NCBI GenBank assembly: GCA_017499595.2
Contig: CM039003.1
Location: 3,224,001-3,288,000 of the forward strand
Origin: Psilocybe cubensis
Lineage: Eukaryota
Direction of reading: 5' to 3'
Length of the DNA stretch: 64,000 nt
In this document: in pieces, positions 1,475 to 40,417 of the stretch
How the letters are laid out: every line of letters begins with the position of its first letter
How positions within the stretch are numbered: position 1 is the stretch's first letter
Program-made: the position numbers and the translations under genes
The notes under the pieces: model-generated
The model's database searches: none
Seen by the model: the letters and a program-made list of their open reading frames with translations, nothing else
Told to the model about the DNA's origin: nothing

Positions 1475-1493
1475 CACTGCGGGCGCCGACCGC

Positions 1494-1868
1494 TGTAAGT
1501 TAAACATACAGCAGAAAACTTACATGTCTTATGTAAGTTTCGCTGTAAGTTCGACATACAGCACACGTGTATGAAAAACAAACAGTCGGCAAAGACATAT
1601 TGTGTTTGGTGGCTGTATGCCGACCAAACACAATTGCTGTAAGTAGACTGTAAATAGAATAAACACCGAGATTACACAATTTCTTTTTGTCCGGTGTTAG
1701 TATAATATACACAATTGCTGTAAGTCATACAAACAGCACTTGTGTAAGTAAAACATACACACAAAGAAAACAAATTGTGTATGTCATACTTACACAATTC
1801 CTGTAAGTAAGTGCTGTAAGTTAAACATACACCTGAACTTACAGTAATCGACTCGCTGAGCGAGTCGA
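1494..1868. repeat. Subterminal array of TGTAAGT(N)ACATACA motifs in both orientations plus a 21-bp palindrome
   Basis: About 8 forward TGTAAGT and about 3 reverse ACTTACA copies; tcgactcgct-g-agcgagtcga at 1848-1868. CACTA elements characteristically have subterminal protein-binding repeats. Confidence 0.8.
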
Positions 1869-2363
1869 CAAGCGCGCGAAGAATTCGCATTTTTGGCGCG
1901 ATGTCGACTCGCAGACGATGATAACACGATGGCATGCGTCGTTCTGGCGACTCGCTGCCCTTTGAAAAATCTCGCAGTCGTCAATGTGTAGTGCGCGATT
2001 CATTAATAAATATGATATATTTTCAGCGTTTTGCGCAATTCTATTTATTACACTCGTTGGGTACTTAATATAGCTGGCGCCCTACCTGGCGCGCCTACAC
2101 CCGACTCACCTGCAGACATTGAAAATTCTGAATCTTTGGCCTTCCCTAGTGTGAGTCTGCAGTGAGTACTTTAATCTGTTCGTTTGCCATCGTTTGTCAC
2201 CACCATCTATAAATTGATCCCACTTACACAACTTTCCCGCAGCCTTTCTTATCACCAACCACAACCACAACCACTCACTCCCTCGCTCACTCGCTCTTAC
2301 CGACTACCACCCACATCGATCTCCACACCCACCCGCTTATTCGTTAACCGCGAATCTCTTACC

Positions 2364-2925
2364 ATGGCTGCACTCATCTCTCAAGTCGTTTCGGCCATCG
2401 TAGGCTTCAAGTATGGGTTGAAGCACAGCATCGCGTCGGGATGTTGGATAACGGAGCGCGTATCCGCGTATGTGGGGTCGGTTTGTGGGGAGGTCTTTCG
2501 TTATATCGAAGAGCGTAGCGATACCCCGGTGATGGTCAGAGGTCGCAATCGTACGCATCGTTGAATTTTTTTTTTTTTTGAATCTGCTCATCCCAGTTTC
2601 GTTAGGCGCTCAAATCACGGATGTCGAAGCCCAGAATTTACGCACCACCGACGCTGACTGCAACGCCGACTTCGAGGAAATCGAGGACCTCCTTCGGATT
2701 CGTCAAGAAATAATGGATCTTCATACCCTTCTCGACAACAAACGCGCACTCACCCGGCCTATGACGCCCGAAGCGCACAATATCAACATCGACCGATTCG
2801 CTCTCGACCATAGGCACCGGCTGAACGACATCGCTATCGAGGCGCAGATTCGCGCCAAGTATCCGTCGAGGAACGAGTATCTCGCAATCTGCAAGAAATA
2901 CGAGGTTTCCCCCTTCCGCACCTAG
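2364..2925 (+). CDS. TIR-encoded two-exon hypothetical protein (~168 aa), left copy
   Basis: ATG 2364; a GT..AG intron at 2551-2605 joins MAALISQVV...VRGRN to RAQITDVEAQ...SPFRT in frame; TATAAA at ~2208. Confidence 0.65.
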
Positions 2926-3584
2926 CAGGCGTTCTCAGCGTCATTCCAGCGTCTTTATAACTTCTTGGGGGACTCACCCACTACCCTACTCCCCGTCATC
3001 TTTCTAATCGTTTTCTTGTTTTCTTGCTTTCGATTTTCAGTATTTGATCTGCTGTATATACACGCTCACTTTTGTATTCAACGATACCTCTAATGTGTAG
3101 TCTACTGTTTCATATTGTATTATACTGTCGCATATCCATTTTATTTCTCAGTCAAGTTCACTCCGGTTCATTCATAATTAATGAAATAAGTTGGCTCGCC
3201 GAGTGACCCGTTGATAATCGACTGCTCGTATGATGGGTGAGTCAGGGAGTTGTGGGTCAAGATGTCCTTTGCGGGGTGTAAACTCTGCGGGTGTTGCGAT
3301 AGAATTGCCAGTGCCGTATTCGTTCACAAATTCTCTACATCCTCGCAGAAGCTGCCGGTACAGCAGCAAAACGAACCTCTAAGCACAATCGAAGCTAAAA
3401 CTACATTTATCGGCACGATGAATTAACGCCTCCAACTAGACGTCACGATGTGTAACCTAAGACATGGTAATAACGCAGTACGTACCTGTTCATTAACCCG
3501 GTAATATTGAGCTTTGTGTAGGGAGAAAGGTCGTGCACATCCATGGTGAGATTAAAAAAATGTGGTTAGGATGAGATGAGTTTT

Positions 3585-4345
3585 ACCTGCATAACCACTC
3601 GTCGCTCAGCCTTTCCAGTCCTGATATCGTACAGCGTGAATGTCCCGTCGGATCCTATACTTGCGAGCACCGATGATTCGCTCATTAAATCGTACAGATG
3701 TGATAGTTTCGGTTGATGTTGGGAAAGTGAGAAGATGGATAGATTGATCCTCGCTTAAACGCAGCTTTCCCGGGAATACATTAAGAGGCTAAAGGGCAAC
3801 GGTTAAAGGATTAGAAATTGAGCTCAGTAAATAAAAGAAGCGCTGATGCGGACATGCAGCGCTGTCGTCCGAGGGTGTTGACTTACCACCTCCGTATTCA
3901 GGTTATCGTCTCCAACGGCCCATAGGCTTCACGTTACGATCGACACCGCAGCTAAGAAGCCTTTGACCATCCGGAGAGAAGCATAGCCCTGACGCTTTCC
4001 CTTGTGCGCCTGGGGAATTTTGGCGATCGGTTTTCGGGTTGCAAGATTGTGGAGGATTATTCCTGGTTTATTCCAATTCCATCATTTAGTGATTATCGCC
4101 TGCGTGATTAGAGAACCCACGCACACACCTCCATCCCAGCTTCCACTGGCCACACCTGTTAGGGAGCCAGGTCGCCTGTACAGGACCTCAACAGCATCGA
4201 TGTGCCCTTCCAGACTGTCCACAAGCGGCTTCGCGAACATCCTTTCCATTTTAACCGCATTCAAAGCACGGGTTCGTTCTCTCGCACGGGCAAAGGGTGC
4301 ATAAGGGGGTTTAAATTCCGAGATGTAGGCGTCGGGGGTCTCCAG
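3585..4345 (-). pseudogene. SOF1: Captured degenerate fragment of SOF1/DCAF13 (U3 snoRNP WD40 protein)
   Basis: RNLNPLMHPFARARERTRALNAVKMERMFAKPLVDSLEGHIDAV...ASGSWDGG and ...LASIGSDGTFTLYDIRTGKAERRVVMQ. Introns are retained; frameshifts and an internal deletion are present. Confidence 0.8.
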
Positions 4346-5265
4346 GCCGCATTGGCAGATGTGTGTAGACGGGTCATGTTGGAGTACTGAGATTTTCTAA
4401 GCTCTTGCCTGACTCTTCATCCTCCTCTTTCTCAGAGGGTGTCGACTGAGCCAGCGGCGTGGACGTACGGCCATCCTTCCAGCGTCCTCCAATCCCCCGC
4501 TATCGCCCTCGTGTCATTACCAGCCAATCGCACCTTGGGTTCGAGACGGCGGCGCTGCGATGAGAGTTCGCACCGCGGGAAAGATCTGGGACAACAGTGT
4601 CATGTGAGTGAGACTCTTCCTCTTTTTCTGCTCACTTACCTTCGCTTGTATACTAGTTGATGGCGGGGTGCGCGCTATGACAAGTCGCGTTGTCGTACAC
4701 GATGCGCCTTGTTAGGAATGTCCTGCCAAGGTGCGTCACCACCCTTTATCAGTCTTAATTACTGTACTAACCTTACCTGCCATTCCTTCTTTGAGATCGA
4801 CGATGACGACGACGACACAGGCGGGGTCAAGGGAGCAGAGTGACGAACTGCGAATACTTGTAAGTTACCTACGCAGCTGGAATTTCACGCTTGCTCACCT
4901 CTTGTCTTTTCAGCGTGTCTGTATCGGTGTTGTTGGCGTGCGACTGCGATAGGGAGTTGAGGGGTACTGCGACGGCAAGAGGTCAGTCATTGGAAAACTA
5001 TGTCATACTCTGATGCTCACTGTTGTTTTACCACTTCCAGTCACTTCAAATCACCATCGTTGGCCTCGTATCTTCTTATGGATCAAGGGTGTCGGGGGCT
5101 GTCATAGGAGATGATGGAAAGGACCTTTACTTACCCAAGAATGCCCGCCACAACAGCGTACGCACACCGGAGACCGACTGACACCGGGGTGCGTTGCGAT
5201 GAAAAGAAACCGCTGGCCAACGACGAGCGCGTTGCTGGAAAAGTGCGTCAATGCTGTAGGTATGG

Positions 5266-8284: not shown

Positions 8285-8757
8285 GCGTCAACATGTGCTC
8301 CTCCAATTGGCGCATACAGATCAACTTTCTCGGTATTAGTTATATTGACAGAAGCGAGTTAAGTCTTGAAGCTCGTCGGTGCATACGGTGTTCGAGGTAA
8401 CGTGCAGGAAACATGCACGATTAGGGTACATGGGTATAGTGGGAAGTACAACTCCAGGGCGCGCTGAGCGTGTTCGGATCCGGCCGGCCCGGAAGACGTG
8501 TGCCGCGGGAAGCACCTCAACACGTGCTCCTCCAATTGGCGCATACAGATCAACTTTCTCGGTATTTGCAGTTAGATTGACAGAAGCGAGTTAAGTCTTG
8601 CAGCTCGTCGGTGCATACAGTGTTCAAGGTGGCGTGCAGGAAACAGGCACGATTAGGGTACAAGGGTATAGTGGAAAGTACAACTCCTTCTGTTCAGGGC
8701 GTGCTGAGCGTGTTATGAGCGTGTTCGGATCCGGCCGGCCCGGAAGACGTGTACCGC
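8285..8757. repeat. ~230-bp tandem duplication, part of the left arm of the inner inverted repeat
   Basis: tgctcctccaattggcgcatacagatcaactttctcgg...cggcccggaagacgtgt occurs twice. Confidence 0.85.
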
Positions 8758-9434
8758 ATACAAAGAGCTTCACGCGCGTGCAGAGCGCATAACCTGCGCG
8801 TGGATATGACCGTTCCGGGGTATGAACGTGCTCCTTCCGTGAGCTGACCCGCCTCTCTGACTCGTCTACCAGCGCCATTTCCACCAGCTCCAATGTCACT
8901 TGTGCCGTTTCATCTTCCATCAGCACCGTATCTGTTGGAAGAAGACTTGAAGCCAGTGACTCACTACGCTCTCCGCTCCAATGCTATCTGATTCACGCAT
9001 GAATATGAGTGTGGGCTTGCCTGGTCGGCTGCCCGTGATATATTGAACAATTTAATAACGAATTAATCTAAATCAAATATATCAGATTCTTGCAAATCAG
9101 ATTTTGCGATACAGATCCGTCCAGAGATATACGTATTACAAACTTCAACTTACCTATGACGAAGTATGATTCAGGACCTGTATCGTGACCGGCTTAACCC
9201 CCGCAGATTGAGCAGCGACCAAATAACGTGCGTTTGAGTGGAAGATTATCGTGTTGCTCAGTTGTCGAGACCCTATCGTGTAGATTTCACCCCGACCTTG
9301 CCCTTCGACCGCAGATTCACCTGTTCATGGAAGTGAGCCGTGGGCACCGATGTCCTGGAATGATCAGAACGAAAATTTCTGCTTACCTCTCGTGAAAGGG
9401 ACGCATGCGACGGGCGACGGCTTTTAAACCAGCC

Positions 9435-11443
9435 TCATTGAACACGATGACCGGTAGCATAGAGCGTAGTTTGACTCGTCAAGTGCGCTGAGTGTGTAAC
9501 TCTGATTTCGCTGTCATTCTGGACTTTGCTTCGGAGTTCTAGCACCTAAAAAGGGGGTCAAAACCACAATAAGTTACGGTTTGAAGATCACTTAACCTCC
9601 TCGCAAATCCTCCTTGCTCACAACTCTATAATGGTATCATTTAAGTATGCCCTGTACCAAACACGCATTACCTTTGAGGTATTTCTAATGCCTGACTTTC
9701 AGACCTGATCCCACTAGCTACTCGCAGACATTAAAACCACGTAAAGTTATATACACATTATGAGTGCGCGTAACTACAAATGCTGGCTACAACTCTAAAT
9801 TTTCTAAATTTCCCTCATTTGCGTTGAGGAGCCCGTAATATTGCGCCTTCGAAGTCAAGAAAGCGAACAACTAAGGTAGACATTGCTATTAGATATAAAA
9901 GTTGAGGCCAGATGACGAATTCTTACAGCAAAAAGATATGGTGCCCAGTTAGCGTAAGTGCATGCCATGACAAAAGCAATGAAGGGACCATTGGTTCTGG
10001 CATAGTGAAGGAGCGTATTTGCAGGCTGTGTTTGAGTTTCACCGACGCCAACAAAGGGCTGGCTCCGCTTTTCCCACAGATAGATGAAGCCATTAGAAGA
10101 TGCTGCAATACAGACTTTGCGACTCTCCGCCATGGTTACTGCAATCGCCTGTGTCATGTGAGCCTCTGTGAACATGTTTGAGCGTCAGAAAGCATAAGAT
10201 ACGGCAAAAGATCAAACCTTTTGGACTTGAGGTAAGGGTCTGCAGAACGTAATTATTGGCTACGTCAAAGATATGTACCTTATTAGTGTGGCTACCGCAC
10301 ACCGACAGTTTCGTGCCTTCAATGAAACGGCACTGCTTTATGAAGTATTTGTGGGTGGTCACGGAGTCCCCAACGGCTAGGGTCTGGAGAGGAGACATAT
10401 CAGGAGTTTGGTAAACATCAAAATTGCCGTTGTTGAGATTGTTGACGATGATAACAGTCTGGTCGCTCGAAATCGCAGCAGATCCGCTACATGAGCTTAT
10501 CAGTCGAATATAAGGTAAAATATGTTAATATGCGTACATCCCACTGGCGAGTTTTTTGGTCCAGAGCACTTCGCCATTGGAAGCGTCCCGACAACAACTA
10601 GCAGAATTAAGAACAGTTAGAACAGTTGAACAGCGTGGTTAATTGATATTACGTTGATAAACATACACGTCACCATTCTCTAGTCCGAAGGACAGCAACT
10701 TTTCATTTGTTGACCCGAAGAAGAGGACCGACGTCGGAATACCAGGTCGGTTACTGGGAGCTTCCCAGACGAGATTCGCTGAGCCAGCTACAGGCAATAA
10801 ATAAATGGTACAGAAGAAACCAGGAATAACCCTTACCGACTGCATCAACAGAATACATCTTAACAGCTCCGGAATGACTGGAAGCAATCAGCCTGCCGTT
10901 TATCTTATCAAATACGAGGTTCTCCACGATGTCATTTGGGGTGAACAGCTGGATTACGGTTCCTCTCTCCGTGAAAGGCTACGAGAGAGAATTAGTGACT
11001 CGCTAGGATATCCTCTGATTGGCACACCTTAACAGAACGAGAGTCCATTAAAAACATGCTCATACCACCAAAAACATTCCCGACGCATAATACGGTTGAG
11101 GGCTCCCTCGAAGGTAATTCGGTATACGCCCACGCTAGGCAACTAACTTGCCCCCACTGCTTGTTCTCGAGGACTTGTTCAGTCCGGAAAGTTTCCGTGT
11201 TCCATATAAAAACCTTGTCGCGGTCACCTATTTTGTTGCATCAGATTCTCGTTCCAATAGTGAAAAGCAAAGAAATAGTATACCTGCAGCGACCAAAAAT
11301 TTTCCATTGCTCGAGAAGAGCAAGTGATCAACGTGTTCAATCCCTGGGTTCTTCAACTCCTTCGCAAGGACGAAAGAGCTATTCTGTTTCAACGGTTAAA
11401 GTAAATATTCTACATTTCAAATGTCACGACGTACCAAGTTCAT
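9435..11443 (-). CDS. Multi-exon WD40-repeat protein with C-terminal hydrophobic segment (element core)
   Basis: Spliced reading gives HLLFSSNGKFLVAAGDRDKVFIWNTET..WGQVSCLAW, ..VCGSHTNKVHIFDV.., ..IAASSNGFIYLWEK. The 3' end is uncertain. Confidence 0.7.
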
Positions 11444-12310
11444 GATGTATAAGTAGGTATAAGTAGACAGATAGGATAGCACTGTGGTGTACGGGCAAAT
11501 GTGGCAAAATGTTTGATTTGTGGGGTGAAGGTACTTTTATTCAAAGCCTGCCGTGTCTTGTCTTTAAGATTGAGTACGTCGTGTTGCCTTTCAGCTCACC
11601 GGAGATATGCCTAGCGCTGGATCCGCCTTTCGACACAAGCGGGTCATCAACGAGACGACAGCGTGTTTGTTTCGTTTATTCTCTCACCCGGGATCCCTTT
11701 CACTATCACTATACAATCCGAGCTTTGTTATTTTTCAGTTATGTTTGGGTGGGATGCTTTAGCAGACTTCAGTTTCTCTCACTCTACTAGAAGAAGTAAT
11801 CTAACTACAGGAGTCGCTGAAACTACGTATTTTTTACAGACTGTCGGGTCGTGGTGGAGGAAGAGCGAACCGTGCGAAAATGCTTGAACGAGAATATTAT
11901 AGTGCACAGATTTCCATGCCGCTTCGGCAACTCGCCGAAGCGGCATGGAAATCAACACGGTATATCAATGCTGGCGCGCGACCGGACCACCTTTCCGACC
12001 TTCTTTGTTCATCTCCTCGTCATGGGGAAACATCGTCTTCCTCGATGAAAGAGTTCTTTCTGTATAATTTGTAATTGTACCCTTTCTGAATCAATAGACC
12101 TAATAGATCAGTGTGAAAGCAATCAAGCAGTCCTCCGCAAAAGCCGTTTGACGCGTAAAACACGCCCACAGCGACTTGATAATGCCTGTGTGCTATCGAC
12201 TGTGCGTATATTTCAAGCCCCTCGCCATCCTACCCTTCTCATATTATCAATTCACCACCAACCTTTCTTAGACGCTCTTTTCTGCCTCCTTTCAACTTAC
12301 TCGTACGACC

Positions 12311-13232
12311 ATGGAGAACACTACTCGTCAAGCTTCGTCATCAGGTTCCCTGGTGGAACCTGTCCCCATGGCCGTCTCCGAACCCTATATCGGATTTCAC
12401 CACCCTATGGTAACATCGCATATCAACTTTACACCAGTCTCTCGTTCTGCTCCTCCTGTTCCCAAAACAGCCATGAGGATTAATTGGGAACCAAGGAGGT
12501 CTTCCGCTGATTTACCTGACGATAACGACGACCCCTCACTTGCCCCTGCACCTGCTAACCCTTCACAGTCAACTTCCTCGTCTGCCAACTCTCCGAACCC
12601 AGACCCTCCGAACCCTGCTGCGACGGCAGGGCCGTCGCAAACCACTTTACCCGCTCAAGGTGTCGCTACCGCAGGGCCCTCGTCTGCGCCAGTAGGCACT
12701 TCAAAAGTCATCATTATCCGGAAGCCCCCAGGTGAACCCGGTCGCCCAGGATCGGGTGGTTTTAATTTGGAAGATGTACTTGTGGGCGAGCACGACTGGG
12801 CCTTATCGGACGTTGAAACCCTGCAGGTAAGTTTATTTCGTTCGTCCTATATGTCTTTTCTTTACTCTATCACACAGGATTGGCTTCGCAGAGAGGCGAC
12901 CAAGACTCTCCGGCTCGATGCTAGTTATCGGTCGCAAAACCCGAGACTGATTGAGAGAATATGCAACAAGGTGTGTTCTGGTTTCAGTTCTGCTCAACTT
13001 ATCTCATGTTTTGCAGGCTATGCGTCCCGAGCACTGGCCTGTTTTGGCTAATTACGACAACTGTTGGCCTGTCAAGAGTGCCCTGAAATTGATCCTCAAA
13101 TACAAATCTGAAGCCTCGCGACGGGTAGAAGGGCGGAAAATGGCTGTGCGCGTTCGTAAAGCTATCAATAACCAAGAGGGCTCGCATGAATCGTCTAGCG
13201 AGGGCGGCAGTGGTAGCGATGAAGAGGCCTGA
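12311..13232 (+). CDS. Hypothetical protein with KPPGEPGRPGSGGFNL motif and C-terminal helical domain (element core)
   Basis: ORFs 12311..13051 and 12951..13232 are linked by GT-AG introns. Disordered N-terminus followed by a compact Trp-containing domain (..NYDNCWPVKSALKLILKY). Confidence 0.7.
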
Positions 13233-13861: not shown

Positions 13862-14416
13862 TTGTCGTCTGCTACCATCTACAAAACTATGGAATCGGGA
13901 GACGGATATTGCGCCAGAAACCACTATCACTTCCCGGACACACAGCGGCAGCAATTGCGGCAATTTCATGTCATCACATCACCCGCTCAATCTGTACCAA
14001 CCTATTCCCATCTACCTTTTCCAGACGGCGATGGGCACCCTAAATGCCCCAGTTGCACGAAGTCCATGAATAATGCAAATCGAAACCCCCCGTATAACCA
14101 ACGCTTTACTTATCGATCACACGTATCACTCGCAAATAATGCAAACCGAAGTCCTTTGCCATACAATCAGGTCTCACTCACTCGGCCACCTGAGCTACTC
14201 GACGTCACTCTTCCAAGTGATTATCTGAGTATTTTGGTCCGAGTTCAACATCCCACAATTGACCCCGGGGCTTCCTCCACTAATCGATCGAACTTCGAGC
14301 CTCATCCGTGCCCGTATATTTGCCAACTTTGTCCCTACCTTCAACAGATCATGTATCAAGAAGGCCCTCCCGAAGATATAGTCGGGATACAAGCAGTACG
14401 TTCAGCTTCCGTATAG
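13862..14416 (+). CDS. Possible small Cys/His-containing hypothetical protein
   Basis: 184-aa ORF with CPSC and CPYICQLC; no family recognised. Confidence 0.35.
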   Translation: MSSATIYKTMESGDGYCARNHYHFPDTQRQQLRQFHVITSPAQSVPTYSHLPFPDGDGHPKCPSCTKSMNNANRNPPYNQRFTYRSHVSLANNANRSPLPYNQVSLTRPPELLDVTLPSDYLSILVRVQHPTIDPGASSTNRSNFEPHPCPYICQLCPYLQQIMYQEGPPEDIVGIQAVRSASV

Positions 14417-25149: not shown

Positions 25150-25404
25150 TGCAATGTAACTAGTCCATCGTGTACCAACTTTTTGCGGATTTTATGTCTC
25201 TTAATTTGCGTACGTATTTCTTGGGTGTTTTTTCGGTGTTTTTTTTGTGTAGCGACATGTGCCAAATTTAATAAAGGCAAAGATGTTTATCATCAAGTAC
25301 ATGCGCAAAGGCCCAAATGGGCGTGTCGTTAAACAAAGGCAAGGTATATACATATAACACACGACGCGATACGGGCAGTTAGTTTTCCTCCACCAATTCT
25401 ACTC

Positions 25405-27126: not shown

Positions 27127-27254
27127 CGATTTTTATATATTGTGAAATGGATATCATGCGTGCTTCTCCTTCCCGAGAAGCTATTTCTTAATACTCCCGA
27201 TCTCTGTGACTATAAAGTAGCATCAATTTTGGTACTAGACGTTATCATACCATC

Positions 27255-30200
27255 ATGCCCCCTGCAATAGGCGATCGACTCTGCATATGTAAAGTCCACG
27301 GGTGCTACGATAATGTGGACCCAGGAACTAATCGAAGGGGGAAATTACTTAAACCCAGGGACTTCAGAGCACATCAGCGACGCCAACAAGAAGAAGACCT
27401 AAAGCAACAGCAACGCGCCTTGGATGTACAATCAAAAACTCTCGCTAAGCATGATCAAGCCATTGAAGAAGCGTTGAGTCGTCTATCACTGTCGGACCCT
27501 CAATCAATTCCATCGTTCACATCCCAATTATCTGATTCCGATTCTCGCTTCGAAACGAAAAAGAGAGTGGCAGCTCAGCTTGGTGGCCTGTTGGATGAAA
27601 CAGACGTACACAAACGAGGGATAGAAGCTCTGCAAGTTAATCCCGGACCTCTCACCGACTCTGCATTACTTGGAGGACTGGATAAGTGCTCCTCAGCATA
27701 TGGATTCATCGAAAGATCTGCGACAGTGCTGGCCACAGCCAAACATTCGGCGATCCGAAAGGATCCTTCTATCAAAACACTCATCGATAATGCGCAAATG
27801 CAGCTCGGCCTACTTCAGCATGATCTCAAGCGAATCGAAACTCTCTATAGGAAGGAGTTTGGGAAACGCGAAACAGTTGCCGCCTCGACTCCTATGTACA
27901 ATTCAGGTAACCGAAAGTTCATTCGATATGGTTCTAGGCTAATATTTATGGAAAAGGACGACATTTTAAGCCCATCCTGGAATCCGCAACTACCATCTTG
28001 CAGTTGGTTGCATTCATGGTCGTGTCGGTCCAAGTTATTTTTGGCGTTCCTCGACGGGGTTGCCATTGGATTTTTCAAATTTCCGAATTTATCATTGAAC
28101 AAACAGCCTTCAGTGCCTTGGGCTCTTCCAGTCACTCTACCCTTCCGAACAAAATCAAACTTCTCCTCTCCAAATTCCCTCGCGACGTTCGTACGGCGAC
28201 GAGCTACTTCAATATCGATGCGGAAAGCACTGTTTATGCAGCATGCCCCAAGTGTCACGAAATTTATCCGCCAAAATTGGAGTCTGGCGTTCCCATATAC
28301 CCAGAGAAGTGTCGTGCACGTAGAAGGCCTCACAAGCAAGGTGGCCCTGTCAGGTCCTGCAGAGAATTGCTAGTTCGCCCAAAACAGTTTGGGAAAGCCA
28401 CCATTAACGCTCCAATAAAGCCATACATTGCCTTCAGCTTCCATGACTGGATGGCCAATCTCTTATCACGCCGCAATTATGAGAAGACGATGGATTCAGC
28501 ATGGGATAGAATGCAAGAAAACGAAGGCGATATCGAGGATATTTTCCAGGCGACATGCATCAAAAACTTCAAAGGACACGACAAAAGGACGCATTTCGGC
28601 AAAATCGGCGACAAGGACTCCGGGAGATACTTATTTTCTCTTGGATTCGATTTCTTCAACCCTCTGAGGAACTTGGCAGCTGGGAAAAAGGTGTCAATTG
28701 GCGTCATCGCGCTGATATGTCTCAATCTTCCTATCGATATCCGCTACAAACCTGAGAATATATTCCTAGCGGGTATTATCCCTGGCCCTTCTGAGCCAAG
28801 TCTGGACGCCCTTAACCCGTACTTGCGGCCTTTGGTCGACGCACTACTGCTATTCTGGGATGGAGTTCGCTTTTCAAAGACGGCTCTTTACGAGCTTGGG
28901 CGATGTATATATTGCGCTATCATTGCTATTATCGCCGATCTTCCTGCTGCTCGAAAAATCGGAGGTTTTTCCTCACATAGTCACGAATTCTTCTGTTCAG
29001 TTTGTACTTGCAGCAAAACCAAGAACACTTACAACGACATCGACTATACGACCTGGACATGGCGCACCAACGAGTCCTGTAGAAATCGTTCGGAAAAATA
29101 TCGCAATGCACAAACTCAGGACCTGGCGGATAGATCCTTTGACTTGTCAGGACTTCGCTCCTCGGAGTTGCTTCGTTTGCCGTACTACGACGCAACCAAG
29201 CATCTTCCCATAGATCCAATGCACAACCTATTTTTGGGTTTGGTAAAGGAACACTTCCAAAATATCTTGGGATGCAAGAAGATTCCGATGGGTGGTCTTC
29301 CCGAATCTGCGGCCCATGCAGGCCGTCTATTTGCTCACGATGCCAATAATTTGGACCCCGATCGCTTCAACGTCCAGCAAAAAGCGAGCATCAGACGCTT
29401 GGAAGGATGGCTTAAGGAGCCCTTTCTCCATGGATCGGACCTACAGTCAACGATTGACAAACATGCCAAACATTGGGCTGGGAAGGGATGCCACCTGGTC
29501 TCCTTGATCTACATTGGCAGAGGACTTGGATGCATCCCGAGCACTGTTACCGAGAACGGGAGGGATTCCCGTGATCCTGATAAGAGGTATCACAAGCCGG
29601 AGCTGGCAAAACTAATAGTGGAATGGGTTCGTTGCACGCCTTTTCTCAAGATCATAAATCTGATCAATTTTACCGTTGTCTTCGCTTTTTCCTTAGCGAT
29701 CAAGACAGCCAATAGTACTACCGGCCTCCGTCACCTCTCCTGGACTAGCCGGCAGGCAGGGATATATATTGACCTCGCAGGAAATGGACGAATTGCGACG
29801 AGATATCAGCGCGATAGTGCAACCATCATGGGCAACCACTATTCCTATATCAATCTCTTCCTCTGGACCGAAGTTAAAGTCGGATCAATGGCGAGCGGCG
29901 GGATCTGTTTACCTCCCAATTACTCTCATACGCTTATGGTCCTCAGATGGGACAGACACTACCAGCCAGGAACGTCGAGATCTCCTCAACATGACGATGG
30001 AGTTATTCCAAGCCGTCTCCGTCATCACTTCGCGGACAACCTCTGCTGCACATGAAAGGTTGTATCTTGGGCATATGCTCACGTACCGTCAAAATTTGGC
30101 ACGTTTATTTCCTGACTACAATTGCCATCCCAATCACCACATGGCAATGCATCTTGGGGAATTCCTTGCGGCGTATGGGCCTGTTCATGGATGGTGGACG

Positions 30201-31004
30201 TTCCCTTTCGAGCGTATGATTGGGACACTGCAACAAATACATACTAATTACCATCCTGGTAAGCCGTCAATCATAGAACTCTCATGCTCTACCTAACAAT
30301 ACGTGATAGGCGAGTATGAGGCTACGATTGGAGAATCGTGGCATAGAAGAAGCAATCTTAGGGCACTGTTTTCCAAGGTCACCTGCCCTCCTATCATTGC
30401 CAAGTGCGCTTCAATGTTCGAGAGCATCGTCCAACCTCAGAATCAAAATTTCCTTGCAAACTACGCTACGGACAAGGTGCAGGCGGTTGGAACCGACGAT
30501 CAAGATACAGATATCATCCTTGACAATAACCTGTATCGCGACAGACTGGAGGTTGAACTTCCCGACAACATTCTCAATGCATTTACAAACTTCTTCCAAG
30601 GCAGCGCTGAGCTGGTATCTACTCGTCATATTCGTGCAAACTTAATAAATCGATATACATCGGGCCGCATTTCATACACCAGTTCTTCCATCCATGAAGG
30701 AAACAGTCAGATTCTGACACCCTCGGGTCCGTATTGCATCCAGAACATTGTAGTGTTCCGCAAGCCACTTCTATACGACGATGTCTGGCTTGTCGCAAAA
30801 CCATTTCGCGCTGCAAAAATCAAGGTCGACCCCTATATGCGGTATCAACATCTTAGAGCAAAAATATGGAGCAACGAATTGGAGGAATTCATTGAGGTCA
30901 TTCCCTTGTCTATGGTTGATACTCATTTTTCCAAGTGCGTCATTCAATGGGAAGGGAAAGAAGTTGCCGTTTGTGTAAGTTTATCTCGAGTTGTATCCGT
31001 TTAA
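27255..31004 (+). CDS. CACTA/EnSpm Tnp2 (Transposase_21-like) DDE transposase, apparently intact
   Basis: Motifs FDFFNP, CLNLPIDIRYKPENIFLAGIIPGP, DLPAARK, FCSVC, IDPMHNLFLG, HHMAMHL, GPVHGWWTFPFERMIG. Three GT-AG introns join the four ORFs in frame. Confidence 0.93.
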
Positions 31005-31304
31005 TAGATTTGTATGTACGATTACGATTTTACGACCTTTACGTGAGATCAGATCTACCCATAACTTACACTGCAACAGCTCGCTTTAATTCACTCACTG
31101 GTCGCGTAGGAGGCGCGTCAGACTCGCATTTGAGTAACGGCCAGTTCCGTGGGGTACTGACCCGCTTAAACGGCCCGAATCGTTTACCTCTTTGTTTCTA
31201 ATGAATCGTGTTATTTAGGCCTTTGTTCTTTATGTTAAAAGCCTCAAAGACGCTTAAAAGGACCAACGCGAAGTCAACCTCCAACTCATTCCACCCCTAC
31301 CACC

Positions 31305-31802
31305 ATGCTTTCTCCCATGCTATTTCTCATAGTCAAGCTATACGACACTTTTATCTTTTTGATATCTGTCCTCGTTACTTTATTCTTGGTTCAACTTGTT
31401 CACGAGGAATATCATAAATGGTTCGACTATTCACCGGATTCCTCTCCAACCTTGCGTTCTGCACAACATGTCCAACGTCGATCCACAATCTCGAGGCACC
31501 TATCTATCCCTACCTTCCACATCCACCTCCGTATTGCTGTTCAGCCGGCAACAAGGAATATTTTAGAGGCACGGGACACTGTTATCTGGTCGCAGAATGA
31601 GCTGAATATCATGGGGGTGCGTACGTTGATTAAATGTGTATTATCATCTCTGAATCCTAGCTTATAGAGGGTTCATGGAGTTCGAAACCCCTATCGATAT
31701 ATCTTTGTTCACCGATCTGTCAGCGGCCGAATTATATATCTCTTTACCGGCGTCGACCCGAACAGCCCTTCTCCCCAGACCTCGGGCTCACATTACCTTG
31801 AA
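31305..31802 (+). CDS. Small membrane protein, paralog B
   Basis: Hydrophobic N-terminus; NILEARDTVIWSQNELNIMG, intron, then SWSSKPLSI..YISLYRRRP; matches paralog A. Confidence 0.55.
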
Positions 31803-32955
31803 ATTGAATTAAATCGCTAGGCAAGAGTCCAGCGGGTTCGTATTTCATAACTAATTATTCACTGATTTATTCTGACTACTGTGCCTTTGTAGTGCAGAAT
31901 GTGCAGAACGTTTACTCGATCCAGTGTAGCAGAAGCATCGTTCTGTTATTCGTTCATCTTCACGCCCATCCTCCACTCATGGTCTCTTTTAATATCTCTC
32001 CTTCTTGTTCTTTTGGTTCTCTTTATCTCGATTCTTAGAACCTCGATAATTTTTTTTTCGTATAATTCATGTTAACGCCAGTGATTTTAAGTTTTAATGC
32101 CATTTCCTATGCAAAACATACTAGTACGCAAATACTTGAGATTCATTCCCAAGTCGGTTTCATTGTTTATACCTGCAAGAGCATATTGAAACGATGAGCG
32201 CGCGATGATCATAGAAGGGACGATTTTCATGCCGCTCAAGCCGAGAAAGAGCGTGCAAATATGGATCAAAGACGGCAGCAAAAACACACCGGAAAGACAC
32301 TATGCCGTATTGAAAAACCGACGGCATGAAAATCCTTGTCACTTATCAAGTGCACTGAAGTGACTGTGACAACTTTCCGCTCTTAGCATGAACCCACACT
32401 CAGGCACGATGGTATCACCTAGGATGAAGTACGATACGTAGTGTAGAATGATTAATACAACACACCTTGCGCAGTATTATAGGACATTTGAACCTTTTAG
32501 AATGTAGTTAATGTCCAACAAATGAGTATATGAAGTAGAGCGCTCCCTTGTATTGTCAGCGTGTAGCATACGCTTTGGAGTTGGAAAACATGAAGAGTAC
32601 TACTGCACGAAAGTCAAGTGAGTGTAATTTTCCAAGCAGAAGCATTTTCCGTTTTAACCTATAGCTACGATAACCCAGCTACGACACCCCGAAGCAAAAG
32701 TTGGGGATGACAGGCCAGCAGTCTCTCAGAGACTGCTGGCCTGTGTTTCGTGTTTCGACAGCCGACCCTGTCTCCCTGTATCTCAACCTCTGCAAGCTGA
32801 GTAGCACTAGGCCACTTTGGTAAGCAATTTGTCTTTGGAAGCATTTCACTCTCAGGCTTATTAGAATGTTAGTGGCTCGATGTGTTGTCCAGCATGTCGA
32901 CTCTTCGACCGCCAAAGGTTTACAATTGTGGTAGGAACTCTCTGGGGAGAAGAAC

Positions 32956-33330
32956 ATGGATGACGTCGACGTGTCGCGAATCATGCACGAGGAGGCGAGG
33001 ATTGAAATTGCTCCTCCCATGCACCCCGGAGCAGCTCCTCTTTTCCCTCCCATCTACCACCAGGAACAGCTCAGACAGCTGGAGCAGCTCTACTTCTTCA
33101 GCAGGCGAGCAGCGTACTGTTTCATCCGTCCCTTTCACGAGTGTAAGCAAATAATTTTTGTTCTGATCACTACACATCAATTAACACCTAGTAACACAGT
33201 TTCCGGATATTGCTACCCACAGCCCAGTCCCATGGGCAGGTGAATCTGCGGTCGAAGGGCGAGGTCGTGTTCGAAGCCGCCTCGAACTACCTTAAGACAA
33301 CCATTGACGGGATGGACACGGGATGAGTGT
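32956..33330 (+). pseudogene. Hypothetical spliced gene or relic overlapping the right arm of the inner inverted repeat
   Basis: ORF 32956 with a GTAAGC donor near 33142; 33124-33268 has an inverted counterpart at ~9290-9410. Confidence 0.35.
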
Positions 33331-34260
33331 GTTACGGAACACATCGTCGACTCGACAGCTCGCGATGGTTCTGGGAGTGATAAGGTGGGTGTACAGAACA
33401 CTTCAACACTGGCATAGCATGGTCAAGTCCTTCTCTCCAATCAGAATTCAAGCGATTTATCATTGAGGCCAGCTTCGTTCGTGTTGTGGCCATACAAAAG
33501 TCGTACGAACATAACGACGAAATAACGATGCTGCCTCATTACGAGTATTGACCTTTTCTTGATGGCGATTCCAATGTACTAATTCTTCCTGGGTTCATGA
33601 CAGAAGCCAACGACGCTGGTGTTTTCAACCTATACACCGACACTATCTGCGCGCGCCCTGAAATTCCATATTACCGTGTAACACACACCTCGCACCATTG
33701 GTACCCGACAAAGAATCTACCTGAACATCCTCCAAGAAGTAAATAAGTTCAAAAGATCGAGACGAAGAGACGAAGATCGACACTTCTGATGACATGGAGG
33801 AACATGAAGGTCCCCAGTTTGACCTATCATCTATGGAATTCTGCTAGCATATCTCTCAGGTCTCAAGATAAGTCGTACTTCACACGTTCATCTGCGGTAC
33901 TGGGTTGTGACAAGACTAAGGGACAACTCTACAGGACCCAAGACCTACAGACGTCCATTCTCTGGCCTCGTTCGTATCTGGGCTGGCACGATCCACGCGC
34001 TGGGTGCTCCTGGTCTTCCGGGCCGGCTGGATCCGAACACGCTCATAACACGCTCAGCGTGCGCCGAACAGGAGACTTGTACCCTGATGCGCTCATCTGT
34101 ATTATCCGGCCTTATCCAGCGGGACTTTCACATATCCTACGTAGCCGCATTGGGACTGTTGCCTGAACGCCATTTCCAACACTGTCTGCACCGGTGAGCT
34201 GAAACACTATACTCGACGCTTGATGTCCCAGGAGACGCGCGAGTAGAAGAATGAAGAAGT

Positions 34261-34460
34261 CAGGTAGCCCTACCTACTACAATACACGTCCAAGCCACGC
34301 GACGAGCTGCTACCTCTTCTTCCGGCGTATGGGGTACAAGGTTGATCTCAACAACCACGTCAGGTAGCCCTACCTACTACAATACACGTCCAAGCCACGC
34401 GACGAGCTGCTACCTCTTCTTCCGGCGTATGGGGTACAAGGCTGATCTCAACAACCACGT
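34261..34460 (+). repeat. 100-bp near-perfect tandem duplication
   Basis: 34261-34360 matches 34361-34460 with one mismatch noted. Confidence 0.95.
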
Positions 34461-35304
34461 CGTGGCGCACATCCACAACCTCCCTCGCAACGCTCAAGGG
34501 GGATTTCACAGACACCATCGTCGGTGTATGCGAGGTGCGTGGTCTTTCCTGTTCGATATCATTAACACCATTGCTCATTTATGACTTGTTGGCTTCGCCT
34601 TTGCACTCGCACTTTCTTTTTTGATAGATGAGAGGTAGAATATCAAGACTGTCGACGCTGTGCAAGTGCTTCCCTGCGGTGGTTCGCCGGTGCGACGTCG
34701 AGAGGTTCTTGAATATCGGAAGATTGTACCCTGAAATTGATCCCCCGGAGAAACGCATCGATATGCACATTGACTTGTTAAGGCGCGGTGAGTTTAGGGA
34801 TATGGAGTGTGTTAATGACATCGTCAAGTATGTTTAAGATGTCATCACCATATGAACCTCATTACTGATCATTGAATTTCATTTCTTTATTTAGGATAGA
34901 AGCGCAATCTGATCAGCTTGCAGAGACGTACTTTGATGGATTCGATACTGACCTTGCGCGCAAGTTGGTATATGTGACCGCGTTTGACCACAACTTGGAC
35001 AGACGGTTTTGACTGTTAATGTCGAAGCTAAATGGACGGTGTCGTCGTTCAGCGACGAGATACAAGGTCTCGCGCGGACAATACGTACGAAAGACCAAAT
35101 GATCCAGTAGTCGACAGTAAAGATCGAGCTGATGGAGCGGTGGCTGGAGCGGTGAAGAAGCAGGCGGACAATTGGCCAGTCGAGGAAGCAGGAGCTAGCG
35201 TATGAGGAGGCGATGGCGATGGAGCAGTTACAGGCGGACTTTGACACGCTGGAGCAGGATAATGCCAAGTTAAAGACGATGGCGGCTGGGCAGGAGAGGA
35301 AATG
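34261..35304 (+). pseudogene. DCTN1: Captured, internally deleted fragments of dynactin p150Glued
   Basis: CYLFFRRMGYKADL..HNLP; RCDVERFLNIGRLYPEIDPPEKRIDMHIDLLRRGEFRDMECVNDIVK; MEQLQADFDTLEQDNAKLK. Introns retained; frameshifts. Confidence 0.75.
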
Positions 35305-36204
35305 TGAGTGTTTGGAATGATTGTATGCGCGTTTTATTGATAAAGAAATTTTAGCTGTTAGGTGTGCCTGTTGAGGGTGGTTCGTATGTTCCGTATATCG
35401 TGATATAACAGTCACCGGACACTCCCTGCGCATCGTTCGTGTCTGGATGACTTCCTGTGCACGCTGACTGCGCCTCGTACACTCCATCGCGCAGGTCTGC
35501 AACTGCCCGCCTATACACAATAACTGTGCCCCCCGTATACCCCTGCCTCCGCCGTCGATCCGCTGACTGTTTTGGTGTTGTGCATAACATCCTGAGGGTG
35601 TGAGACGGGCGTCACAGCTTACGGTGCCGCAGGATGCATAGAAGGAGGCAAGAGAGCCAGCATATTGTCTGTAGATATTGTGAATGTTTGGTGGGATGTG
35701 CAACCCGATGGGTCACTCACCATCTGGTTTCCATCGTACATAGCTTCCTACGACGCGACGCACGCGACTCGTAGAGTGCCGGAAGCACGCAGTTCACCGC
35801 GCGCTCGGTGTCTCCCATCTCGCCTGACCTCTCCTTCGGTAATGGTGCGCTGAGGAATTTCAACTCTTTGTCTCCTTATGCGGCGCATAGTCTGGAAAGT
35901 CGTTTCTCCTTGAACAGGCGCGTTTTTTTTGTGTGTGTTAGTTTTGCAGCGCTGACATATGCGTATAGATCGAGGCCAGACTCGGAGGAGCTCCCACCGG
36001 CACCGACGGTGCTATCGCTATCCACGGTGATGAAGCGTATGTACCGGGACCCGATGATGTACTCGTCTGCGCCGAGGGTGGTGGACCTGTTTGCTCTGAA
36101 TGCGAAGCGGGCGGCGTAAAATGGAGTCCGAAACGGACGACGACGACGACGACGCTGCAACCATCATAAACTCGCTCAAGACTCTCACATTCGGTGTCTC
36201 CCGC

Positions 36205-36392
36205 GGGACAGGAAATCATCCAACACTGCTTCCACCGACAATTATTTTCCGTCTTCATCCCCGCCCTCGAAGACCCTGAGCCGCGGGTTCACGCTCACAC
36301 AGCATCGGCGCTCATCAATTTCTGCAAAGGCGTCGAGCGCGATATGCCCCTGCCCTATTTGGACCCGATTGTCGAGTGGCTTCTGAAGTTGT
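36205..36392 (+). pseudogene. Captured single-exon fragment of importin-5/Pse1(Kap121)-like karyopherin
   Basis: EIIQHCFHRQLFSVFIPALEDPEPRVHAHTASALINFCKGVERDMPLPYLDPIVEWLLKL resembles the HEAT repeat PRVxxHAAxALxNFxE. Confidence 0.75.
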
Positions 36393-36565
36393 CGAAGCAC
36401 TTCAAGTTCGACTTAGGGGTTGTCGAAGCACTTCAAGTTCGACTTAGGGGTACTACTTACCAAGATACCGAAGATAAGATTAGATAAATTGGTGCATGCA
36501 CGTGACGACACCGTACCAAGTCCACCACGGAGCCCCCAGCCACTTCTGCTATTGGCAGCGACTGG

Positions 36566-38640
36566 GTGCAGTTCTCAGCCTCAGGTTTCCTCGACTCAAC
36601 GCCTGCAATGGCCCCGCTCGTGTCGACGCTATTCGACACGGATATGGAGAAGACTACTCCAGTCACCACGACGCTTTCGAGGAAGTCGAGCAAGCGCAGC
36701 AAAGCCGTTTCGAGGAAGACCGTCGACTTTTCGGCTGAACCTGTACCACCCGTCTCACCCCCGCGGCTTGCAGACCCTGTCAAGAAGGAGACGACTGCCA
36801 TTGTCCGCGCTACCAAGCTCGAAGTCATCGAGCTTGACGAAGCGTTCATCGATTTCTGGAGCGACTCGCTGCTCGATCCTATCACAGCGACATGGCCGAC
36901 CTTTATCATCTGCAAGTTTAAATCCACAGTTGTTCCTCAACTTCTGTACGGCCCCGTTCAAGAGGGCGGCAAGCAGAAGACGCTCAAATGGCTTGTTCTC
37001 GAGCAGGCGTTCACTGTGCGGCCCGCGCCACCACCATCGCTGTCAGCTGTCCCTCGTCCGGAATCGGCGCGCCCGGTCTCCCCTGCGCTCTCGACGTCGG
37101 GCAGGAACCGCTTCAGCTTCTGGAGTATGTCGCGCACTGCATCGAGCTCGTCGCAGTCGTCGCAGAAGGGCAAGAAGAAGGAAAGAGCGCTGAATGTTGG
37201 CGAGATGGGAGAGATTATCGAGGAGCCCGCCGAGCAGGCTAAGCAGGAGGTTGTGCAGCTGAAGGCGGCGCCGTCCAAGTCCAAGTCATCCAAGGCGGAG
37301 AAGGCGCAGATGCCTATCGAGAAACCTGTCGAGGCCGTGAAGCAGCTTGCTGATACATCCGACACGCCAGACCTCGAGACGGCTGCTATTGTGACTGGAG
37401 CCGCAATTACAGACGCAATCGCTGGAGCTGCTGCTGCTGCCCCTGCCGCTAAGATTCCAGAGCCAGCTGTCGAAATTCAGGCAGAGGCACCAGCGCCAGC
37501 TGTTGAGGAGCCTGCCACCGTCAGCGAGACTCCTGCTGCTGTTGTTGCAGAATCCGTAGCACCAGCTGCAGAAGTCTCTCCTCCTGTCACTGAGGCTCTT
37601 GTTATCTCTGAACCCGAAGTTTTGCAACGGAAGTCGAGGCCCCTGTTCTTGATGCACCCGTTGAAGCTGAACGTGAAGCTGCAGTTGAAGAGATCCAAGT
37701 CCAAGCACCCGTCTCCGAACCGCAGCCTTCAACGGATGCGCCCTCAGTTGTCGAGGCCCAGGAAACCGCTGTGGAACCATAAATAACTTCTATCGAACCT
37801 CGTGCCCCCGTTGTCGAAGCAGTGGTTACATAGGATGCATCGACTGACGATGACGCAGCTCCTGTTGAAGCTTCAGTCTCGGAATCTCAAGTCGCAGTAC
37901 CTGAAGCTCCGTCGGCGTCGTTTGTTGCTGAAGTGGACGAATCTGCACCGGAACCCAAAGCTCCAACAGCTGAAGCTATTGCTCCTGCTGTAGACGCCCG
38001 AAGCTCGAGATGAACCCGCTGTCGTTGAGCCCGAACCACCAGTCGTCACAAGCGTGGAAACAGAAGCAAAGATCCAGTGCTCAAACAAGTCTCTGAAGAG
38101 CGTGCAAGTGCAATCGTCGCGGAAGCTCAAGAGCCAGTCGTTGAGTCTGTGCCGCCGCTTGCTACTGCGGCCAAAGAACCTCTCGTCGCAGCTCCTGCCG
38201 AGGTTGCAGAGGTTTTGGTTGAGTCAAATCGCCCGCCGCTGTTGACGACATACCGTCTACAACAACGAAAACCGCCGCCGTCGCCGACGAAGTCTCAACT
38301 TCGAATGTCGAAAAATCTGCGCCTGTTCTGGCAGCAGATCTTACCGAGGCACCAACTTCGATTACCGAAACTCCCTCAGTTGATGTTGACGCCGCGCAGG
38401 AGAGCATTGAGGAAGAACCACGGGTTATGGACAACCCCAGTCGCCGAAGTTTCGGGTGCTTCTCAACCTGAAAACCTGTCCCAGGTTCTAGTTTCTGATG
38501 TTCCAGTTGCAGTTGAATTACAACCCTTCAAAGCGGATTACCAGGCTCCTATCGTCGAGGCTCCAGCCGCGGAACCTCAGGTACAACTTTCAACGGGTCA
38601 ACGATACCCTCGCGCGCCATGTCGACGTACTCGGTTGTAG
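36566..38640 (+). pseudogene. Captured 3' fragment of a host gene with DEAFIDFWSDSLLDP motif and Ala/Glu/Pro/Val-rich tail (possibly Msb1/Mug8-related)
   Basis: 406-aa ORF with host-like codon usage, no 5' portion, and several frameshifts in the low-complexity tail. Confidence 0.5.
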
Positions 38641-38760
38641 CCCCAGGAGAATTTGTCCGCGCTGCCGTAGCCAGTTGGGCCTGCAAGCGACGTTAGATGG
38701 TGCAAGAAGTACATTGTGAACTGTATCAGTTCTGTAATGGCTTGAAAATCATTGAATTTA

Positions 38761-40414
38761 CGACAGTATAGCATGTACAATATGAAACAGTAGACTACGT
38801 ATTAGGTACATTGTGGGGTATGAAATTGATTGCGTATATACAGCAGACCGAAAATCGAAAGCAAGACAACAAGAAAACAATTAGAAAAGCTGACGGGGAG
38901 TAGGGTAGTGGGTGAGTCCCCCAAGAAGTTATAAAGACGCTGGAATGACGCTGAGAACGCCTGCTAGGTGCGGAAGGGGGAAACCTCGTATTTCTTGCAG
39001 ATTGCGAGATACTCGTTCCTCGACGGATACTTGGCGCGAATCTGCGCCTCGATAGCGATGTCGTTCAGCCGGTGCCTATGGTCGAGAGCGAATCGGTCGA
39101 TGTTGATATTGTGCGCTTCGGGCGTCATAGGCCGGGTGAGTGCGCGTTTGTTGTCGAGAAGGGTATGAAGATCCATTATTTCTTGACGAATCCGAAGGAG
39201 GTCCTCGATTTCCTCGAAGTCGGCGTTGCAGTCAGCGTCGGTGGTGCGTAAATTCTGGGCTTCGACATCCGTGATTTGAGCGCCTAACGAAACTGGGATG
39301 AGCAGATTCAAAAAAAAAAAAAATTCAACGATGCGTACGATTGCGACCTCTGACCATCACCGGGGTATCGCTACGCTCTTCGATATAACGAAAGACCTCC
39401 CCACAAACCGACCCCACATACGCGGATACGCGCTCCGTTATCCAACATCCCGACGCGATGCTGTGCTTCAACCCATACTTGAAGCCTACGATGGCCGAAA
39501 CGACTTGAGAGATGAGTGCAGCCATGGTAAGAGATTCGCGGTTAACGAATAAGCGGGTGGGTGTGGAGATCGATGTGGGTGGTAGTCGGTAAGAGCGAGT
39601 GAGCGAGGGAGTGAGTGGTTGTGGTTGTGGTTGGTGATAAGAAAGGCTGCGGGAAAGTTGTGTAAGTGGGATCAATTTATAGATGGTGGTGACAAACGAT
39701 GGCAAACGAACAGATTAAAGTACTCACTGCAGACTCACACTAGGGAAGGCCAAAGATTCAGAATTTTCAATGTCTGCAGGTGAGTCGGGTGTAGGCGCGC
39801 CAGGTAGGGCGCCAGCTATATTAAGTACCCAACGAGTGTAATAAATAGAATTGCGCAAAACGCTGAAAATATATCATATTTATTAATGAATCGCGCACTA
39901 CACATTGACGACTGCGAGATTTTTCAAAGGGCAGCGAGTCGCCAGAACGACGCATGCCATCGTGTTATCATCGTCTGCGAGTCGACATCGCGCCAAAAAT
40001 GCGAATTCTTCGCGCGCTTGTCGACTCGCTCAGCGAGTCGATTACTGTAAGTTCAGGTGTATGTTTAACTTACAGCACTTACTTACAGGAATTGTGTAAG
40101 TATGACATACACAATTTGTTTTCTTTGTGTGTATGTTTTACTTACACAAGTGCTGTTTGTATGACTTACAGCAATTGTGTATATTATACTAACACCGGAC
40201 AAAAAGAAATTGTGTAATCTCGGTGTTTATTCTATTTACAGTCTACTTACAGCAATTGTGTTTGGTCGGCATACAGCCACCAAACACAATATGTCTTTGC
40301 CGACTGTTTGTTTTTCATACACGTGTGCTGTATGTCGAACTTACAGCGAAACTTACATAAGACATGTAAGTTTTCTGCTGTATGTTTAACTTACAGCGGT
40401 CGGCGCCCGCAGTG
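38761..40414 (-). repeat. Right terminal inverted repeat
   Basis: Reverse complement of 1475-3130; near-identical from ~38891 to 40414. Confidence 0.95.
38964..39525 (-). CDS. TIR-encoded two-exon hypothetical protein, right copy
   Basis: Mirror image of 2364..2925 with identical translations in the ORF track. Confidence 0.65.
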
Positions 40415-40417
40415 TAT

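Follow-up and report, generated by a model that had tools for sequence, protein, structure and literature searches.

The stretch of DNA analysed here, called the window throughout, comprises 64,000 nucleotides of Psilocybe cubensis (assembly GCA_017499595.2, contig CM039003.1, forward-strand positions 3,224,001 to 3,288,000) and contains a transposable element of 38,940 bp, from 1475 to 40414, which splits exon 1 of a PNPOx/FAD-NAD oxidoreductase gene. The element is a giant, multi-gene member of a known superfamily, and it is real, single, recently mobile and one of a family. Very probably it is an autonomous CACTA/EnSpm element that was moved into the oxidoreductase exon by cut-and-paste. 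A preliminary description of this DNA, made from its letters, had already proposed one recently mobilised unit; the exact ends, the empty site in other strains and the orthologues that read across the insertion site all support that proposal.

Element ends, the interrupted gene and the empty site

The element opens with CACTG at 1475 and closes with CAGTG at 40414, and the flanking letters (ggctat before CACTG, tatatacg after CAGTG) reveal a TAT target-site duplication (TSD) with copies at 1472-1474 and 40415-40417. Its terminal inverted repeats (TIRs) are 100% complementary over 1,529 nt, 1475-3003 against 38886-40414. BLASTN extends the pair to 1475-3138 (+) and 38753-40414 (-), 1,669 alignment columns at 97.8%, and past the exact part the identity decays by degrees (93% in repeat pair I11, 75% in I6). 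The 8-mer CTGTAAGT/ACTTACAG occurs 15 times in the window of 64 kb, every time within the outermost ~370 nt of one arm or the other, a clustering at the tips that represents the subterminal repeat pattern of CACTA elements. The left array (1475-1850, +) carries a GCTGTAAGT-type motif in six direct copies and one inverted copy and is mirrored at ~40040-40414. A scan of the window with the first 30 nt of the element, allowing up to 8 mismatches, recovered the two ends only. Ends, arms and TAT duplication together cannot be chance, and the termini, duplication and ~1.5-kb TIRs that had been reported from the letters are borne out at 1475 and 40414 and over the exact arms.

The host gene runs on the forward strand, with its first 77 codons at 1244-1474 and the remainder at 40415-42286, where introns lie at 40656-40714 and 41005-41077. 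In all three orthologues tested, from Agrocybe (P0004), Galerina (P0003) and Gymnopilus (P0005), residues 1-77 fall on 1244-1474 and residues 77-156 on 40415-40657. Residue 77, a Tyr or Phe, is thus used on both flanks, and the host frame is continuous once the element and one TAT are taken out. An insertion within a host gene, as had been claimed, is what these alignments give, with one codon duplicated. The downstream host open reading frame (ORF) is a 100% match to the public P. cubensis protein JR316_0007512 (P0001). That model, which corresponds to 39999-40657 of the window, takes its 16 N-terminal residues from the right arm before entering the host gene, so it is a chimeric prediction of the disrupted gene, apparently made on the same assembly.

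Sequence data of other strains were compared as raw reads (runs X14 and X15) and as contigs (X7 and X10), covering the right half of the element from 22500. In X14, left-flank sequence stands directly before 40415 in 31 reads, with an agreement of 0.99 and a depth of 30.3 in the adjoining bin. These reads hold a single TAT, the flank-to-flank sequence expected being ...ccaggctatatacgt.... One X10 contig likewise joins the left flank to 40415, and a second lacks 40656-40714 and 41005-41077, both bounded by GT..AG, and so represents spliced RNA of the intact host gene. The check for an empty site that had been called for thus returned exact joins of the flanks in both runs. A 3,624-nt contig of X7 matches the window only from 40415 rightwards, despite at least 719 further letters on each side, which suggests that X7 also has an empty site at the host gene. 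Both TAT copies are therefore placed by flank sequence, orthologue alignment and empty-site reads alike.

Transposase, companion genes and other contents

The transposase gene lies at 27255-31004 (+) and has four exons and 1,192 codons, with a stop at its end only, once introns 27907-27956 (GTAACC..AG), 29627-29696 (GTTCGT..AG) and 30259-30309 (GTAAGC..AG) are removed. Its ORF at 27938-30055 matches Pfam Transposase_21 (PF02992) at E 1.5e-12 with 47.6 bits, against a cut-off of 28.6, and the ORF that follows has a weak DUF4218 match. Homologues of full length (1,194-1,228 aa) align in linear order along 27276-30965. The protein has the expected residue at 63 of 63 columns invariant among 28 homologues, columns that include the query by construction. 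PF18759, although carried by some homologues, was not matched by the transposase ORF of the window. The intact Tnp2-type transposase of the preliminary description, a DDE enzyme, therefore stands, with an open four-exon model and three GT-AG introns.

With CACTG/CAGTG ends, a 3-bp TSD, Transposase_21 and a subterminal motif array, the element shows the features of CACTA/EnSpm. CAC..GTG ends and a 3-bp TSD also make it an EnSpm by the criteria in the available text of PMC12730594. The same text gives TGT..ACA ends and a 2-bp TSD for Plavaka A, and CATCA..TGATG ends and a 2-3-bp TSD for Plavaka B; neither fits the combination of termini and TSD observed here. As for a TnpA-type partner, companion genes are conserved, and none of them matches a TnpA-type Pfam family in the scan of ORFs.

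Companion genes were sought in 67 metagenome loci that carry a related transposase (36-62% identity in the best segment), each searched with every element ORF of at least 60 aa. Four genes recur. A WD40-like gene at 9858-11240 (-), recognised by weak profile matches, has homologues in 12 of the 67 loci, and G6, a gene of unknown function at 12272-13229 (+), has them in 5. A further ORF of unknown function at 21331-21711 (+) is found in 6. The fourth, ORF2 (JR316_0007505, P0357; 16164-21057, -), encodes 1,495 aa with repeats, a coiled coil and a conserved helical C-terminal domain; its exon blocks match the window exactly, and its C-terminal exons (16164-17071) have homologues in 14 loci. At least one of the four is present in 21 of the 67 loci, and in 13 of the 15 that reach at least 8 kb (L017 and L026 being the misses); two or more kinds occur together in 11. 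Locus L001 holds the ORF2 C-terminus, transposase, WD40-like gene and G6 within 8.4 kb, and has the WD40-like gene and G6 in the same divergent orientation as the window. Since the four recur beside related transposases, they are family genes and not cargo.

The C-terminal exon of ORF2 (16613-17071, -; 153 aa) has 83 representative relatives at E <= 0.001. Its AlphaFold2 (AF2) model, with a predicted local distance difference test (pLDDT) score of 93, is a six-helix domain, and a Foldseek search of the PDB with this model returned nothing at E <= 0.001 (best E 1.8). Judging by the model, the exon could encode an undescribed domain of transposon proteins. Elsewhere ORF2 contains tandem repeats of 165 nt (19021-19512) and 135 nt (20467-20792), 93-97% alike, which encode coiled-coil and Pro/Ala-rich units. 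Two small hydrophobic ORFs, at 14848-15393 and 31239-31667, have similar C-terminal ends, and each is preceded by a 115-nt stretch (14758-14874 and 31084-31198, 73% alike); they look like a duplicated small gene within the element.

The other contents are of mixed origin. Among 147 stop-to-stop ORFs of at least 75 aa between 3000 and 38900, 16 Pfam families were matched: transposase families, Spt5 NGN/KOW, coiled-coil models, one weak beta-propeller and a few weak others. No recombinase, reverse transcriptase, TET/JBP, transporter or metabolic enzyme was matched in these 147 ORFs. The Spt5-like gene, with NGN and KOW domains, lies at 22894-25149 (+); its three exons join into an uninterrupted frame of 711 codons, and its product aligns in linear order with the NGN-KOW region of Spt5 structures (E 3e-19 to 1e-8). 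Its nearest Atlas clusters, a lead only, are 'hypothetical proteins' of Basidiomycota with KOW1_SPT5/NGN, of 50-168 members each. A homologue appears in none of the 67 related loci, so the gene is specific to this lineage; being intact, it could be either cargo or a transposon gene. The ORF pair within the arms, for an unknown protein (2364-2925, +; right-arm duplicate 38964-39525, -), likewise has no homologue in these loci and no Pfam match.

Pieces of unrelated host genes (of Sof1, importin-5 and JR316_0007510 type) show that the element has the gene-fragment-capture feature. The captured 5' part of a Sof1/DCAF13 gene at 3500-4396 (-) matches residues 2-97 of 7mq8_LU (E 1.4e-14) and is interrupted by stops and frame changes, and further WD pieces lie in other frames with stops in between. 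At 36170-36484 (+) is a captured importin-5/importin beta-3 fragment, ~60-80 of ~1,100 residues, matching residues 434-489 of 6xte_A (E 4.2e-06). The ORF that holds the third piece begins 22 nt past it. This piece (36518-38667, +) is a copy of a conserved Agaricales gene, JR316_0007510, and is 5'-truncated, because homologues from other Agaricales (604-694 aa, 44-59% identity) align only from residue 106-161 onwards. Two X7 contigs cover 36646-37587, one identical to the window and the other with 19 differences, and X14 and X15 have minority variants there, which points to a parent gene elsewhere.

The preliminary description had counted about 8-10 other spliced genes between the ends. The number is roughly right; what the count took for genes is a mix of family genes, the Spt5-like gene and host-gene pieces. 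In the public annotation, locus tags are confined to the right half of the element, running from JR316_0007505 (ORF2) to JR316_0007512, which is the chimeric host model. Overall, the contents are mostly transposon genes and transduplicated fragments, not adaptive cargo.

Copy number and movement between strains

Read depth separates the parts of the element. As means of the listed bins, the right half of the interior (22500-38435) has a depth of 15.4 in X14 and 13.8 in X15, compared with 33.6 and 28.8 for the host flank, 29.6 and 24.1 for the inner arm (39100-39763) and 213.6 and 203.3 for the terminal bin; in X14 the depth reaches 531 at 40304 and 637 at 40336. By these values, every two genome copies contain one body, each element has two arms, and the last ~110 nt are present some 35-40 times. 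X7 agrees on an arm depth twice that of the interior. The 469 X14 reads that leave 40414 agree at only 0.37 and have many different continuations, so other family members share only the tips. Membership of a family, which had been proposed, is upheld by these tips (~530-640 against ~15 in the interior, with many flanks) and by near-identical ORF2 copies at five loci of the annotated strain. Within the tips (40146-40414), a variant form that skips 40300-40384 was seen in 18 reads of X14 and 17 of X15. In X14 and X15, 40146 is also found joined to 40414 on the opposite strand, which is what short derivatives consisting of two tips should give.

In two other strains, then, the right half is present at half the flank depth, which indicates that the family moved recently. 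X14 and X15 are fixed for each of the four listed flank differences from the window, and in X14 the 31 empty-site reads about equal the flank depth. On both grounds, the element probably sits at another place in these strains. In X7, the k-mer depth is 13.5 for the interior and 11.5 for the flank, and a 12.6-kb contig spans 22500-33268 with four differences.

In the annotated strain, ORF2 stands at five loci of the public proteome. JR316_0007505 and JR316_0011756 are identical, JR316_0011727 differs by one residue, and JR316_0012021 and JR316_0013504 are one sequence under different gene models. The 618-aa JR316_0007510 protein is listed in identical form under three NCBI accessions, with numbering offsets from ORF2 of 5, 5 and 6. 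Judged from these protein records, there would be five or more nearly identical copies, of which three or more have their genes in the same order. This would be a recent burst of the element in the annotated strain.

Several points weigh against an active, autonomous CACTA element as we describe it. Perfect arms of 1.5 kb are atypical for CACTA elements. The filled junction is backed only by the window and model P0001, apparently one assembly. The three-copy gene order is a matter of accession and locus-tag arithmetic, the other copies being known from annotation alone, and the multi-copy state is documented only by the annotation of one assembly, the right half being single-copy in X14, X15 and X7. 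No transcripts of element genes were seen; X10 has, besides the host gene, only three short bits of the element and is uninformative on expression. Finally, a search of related loci of at least 5 kb for CACT[AG] inverted ends with a matching TSD gave two short pairs, neither enclosing the transposase and neither with a TSD, and in 11 long loci a repeat search yielded a single candidate for an enclosing pair (L017, 1611-1990 / 14351-14605), which is without CACTG ends. As no TIR pair surrounds the transposase in the related loci, the size of any compact ancestor comes from gene spacing only.

Alternative origins, known relatives and significance

Could the element instead be a Starship analogue driven by a DDE enzyme, a true carrier of cargo? 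Extra genes such as the Spt5-like gene, the WD40-like gene and ORF2 would then be of host type and moved for the benefit of the host or the spread of the element between genomes. The element's 39 kb, its many intact spliced genes and its varying place and number between strains are in keeping with this, and so is the intact Spt5-like gene, which is colinear with Spt5 NGN-KOW and, by its absence from all 67 related loci, a later acquisition. However, four of the extra genes accompany the transposase as conserved partners in other fungi, such host genes as can be identified are truncated, and the 16 Pfam families in 147 ORFs include no tyrosine recombinase. Nor did any sign of transfer between species emerge, though no search aimed at it was made. 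We therefore regard cargo carriage as unlikely. The 'cargo ship' analogy of the preliminary description is not supported on present evidence: the companions are family genes, the recognisable host material consists of truncated pieces, and the 147 ORFs matched no family of enzymes, transporters or recombinases. An assignment to Starships proper was rejected on the same Pfam scan, in which no recombinase appeared.

A composite origin, in which two inverted small CACTA copies mobilise the former host or other-transposon DNA between them, would account for arms that are each a 1.5-kb unit with its own ORFs, for terminal ~110-270 nt that are common to many genome places when the remaining arm is not, and for host-gene pieces just inside both arms. 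Weak inner inverted patches may be added, colinear short stretches at 8355-9407 and 33123-34215 (73-97%) with similar short ORFs on opposite strands; these may be a remnant of an older arm pair or of a duplicated gene. Yet the interior holds the family transposase and conserved companions in arrangements seen in relatives, and its host pieces are truncated and juxtaposed (importin, then 22 nt, then the JR316_0007510 ORF), unlike a contiguous host segment. Moreover, three runs have just two copies of the inner arm for each element and gave no small element standing alone with this arm, and the spacing from ORF2 to the right end is the same at several loci. A composite is accordingly improbable. 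That a fold-back or chimeric join in the assembly made the arms or junctions is scarcely credible. Arms that are 100% identical over 1,529 nt and a filled junction documented in one assembly only could raise this suspicion, but the arm has twice the interior depth in two raw-read runs and one independent contig set, identity decays by degrees past the exact part, and the breaks fall exactly where a conserved host gene has one codon duplicated and where the flanks are joined in the empty site of other strains.

For the autonomous CACTA/EnSpm element that we favour, a mechanism may be proposed. The Tnp2 transposase would cut at the CACTG ends and insert the element with a 3-bp staggered cut. In En/Spm, TnpA recognises subterminal repeats; by analogy, a conserved companion protein probably aids the transposase here, with the GCTGTAAGT-type subterminal repeats being bound. 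Copies could be gained by transposition during replication or by gap repair. The element may have grown to 39 kb from a compact form of ~10-15 kb, the additions presumably being the ~1.6-kb inverted end duplication, the repeat and coiled-coil N-terminus of ORF2, the Spt5-like gene and the host-gene pieces. It is tempting to speculate that the Spt5-like protein has a role in transcribing a 39-kb element or in countering silencing. A wider reading, possible though doubtful in our view, is an active ~39-kb DDE lineage, which would be the largest autonomous CACTA on record, with a conserved five-gene core, an acquired intact Spt5 paralogue, duplicated pieces of essential host genes and at least five near-identical copies in one strain against a single copy elsewhere. 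It would provide a DDE route of gene mobilisation in Basidiomycota, with the Spt5 paralogue aiding transcription or escape from silencing.

Among known systems, CACTA elements are described in the available text of PMC8978399 as having CACT(A/G) ends, a 3-bp duplication, subterminal motif arrays, a Tnp2-type transposase with further ORFs, and capture of host-gene fragments. Maize En/Spm and plant CACTA elements share with the P. cubensis element the ends, the 3-bp TSD, subterminal arrays in both orientations, the Tnp2-type (TnpD-like) transposase and fragment capture. They differ in arms of tens of bases rather than 1.5 kb and, for the complete plant element described in that text, in a length of 9.5 kb rather than 39 kb. 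They also have two genes, against at least five conserved genes here, without TnpA similarity by Pfam. Some plant CACTA families approach 30 kb.

Fungal EnSpm elements (Kojima 2025, PMC12730594) have CAC..GTG termini, a 3-bp TSD and an EnSpm/Plavaka-related transposase in common with ours. In the available text they are described for a TET/JBP dioxygenase, which no Pfam match indicates in our element; a related Agaricales family may be included there. CNIRT6 of Cryptococcus neoformans (PMC12810828) is, like our element, of basidiomycete CACTA type, mobile and bounded by CACTG ends, but it is a single gene annotation of ~6.9 kb, with no long arms or companion set given in the part of that paper available to us. 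The giant red-algal EnSpm/Plavaka elements of Chondrus and Bostrychia are also enlarged and carry a conserved accessory cassette. The accessible text of the two sources (PMC6431247; bioRxiv 10.1101/2025.02.11.637652) gives 16-20 kb with 4-5 ORFs and 17.4-19.1 kb with three accessory genes. They are about half as long, by the same text, and encode methylase/SET and ParB-oxygenase in place of the WD40-like gene, ORF2, G6 and the Spt5-like gene; recent mobility, shown by the P. cubensis element, is a further difference from these giants.

Starships of Pezizomycotina are also large, multi-gene and variable in presence or place between strains. They are driven by a tyrosine-recombinase (DUF3435) captain, in contrast to the DDE transposase, CACTG ends and 3-bp TSD found here. 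As far as the available text of PMC11162782 and PMC13066641 goes, Starships use tyrosine recombinases and are rare in Basidiomycota. Searches of the full-text literature, with subscription journals, supplements and Repbase mostly outside their scope, turned up no ~39-kb fungal CACTA, no such companion set and no Spt5 paralogue borne by a transposon; an earlier description may exist. The doubt about precedent voiced in the preliminary description was thus fair, with 16-20-kb multi-gene EnSpm/Plavaka elements and CACTA fragment capture being known.

The rest of the window contains further repeats and genes. A small inverted repeat at its start (5-174 / 366-533, ~170-nt arms, 92%) may be a miniature element. 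The inverted repeat at 52047-57512 was considered as a second transposon and rejected: its 1.3-kb arms (92%) are two inverted GH11-CBM1 xylanase genes (E 3.6e-66), with ends that lack CACTG. A 1.2-kb direct repeat (53924-55128 / 58565-59763, 70%) contains ORFs without a Pfam match. Neighbouring host genes, in 43818-48230 and 61430-62404, include a glyoxal-oxidase-like piece, an RTA1-like protein and a protein with a GTP cyclohydrolase N-terminal domain.

Beyond its interest as a single insertion, the element has practical consequences. Public gene models in and beside it are probably mis-annotated, as is the case for JR316_0007512, which starts in the right arm. Such a 39-kb element might also serve as a large-cargo vector in fungi. 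The intact, transposon-borne Spt5 paralogue is testable for a role in transcription or silencing, and the host pieces offer a natural case of host-gene fragment capture in fungi.

For the biology of the group, the element defines a multi-gene CACTA lineage of Agaricomycetes, whose companions (the WD40-like gene, ORF2, G6 and the ORF at 21331-21711) are without assigned function. It indicates that a DDE cut-and-paste enzyme is able to move ~39 kb in a mushroom-forming fungus. With its place and number differing between strains and a conserved gene knocked out in one of them, the element is active in P. cubensis now.

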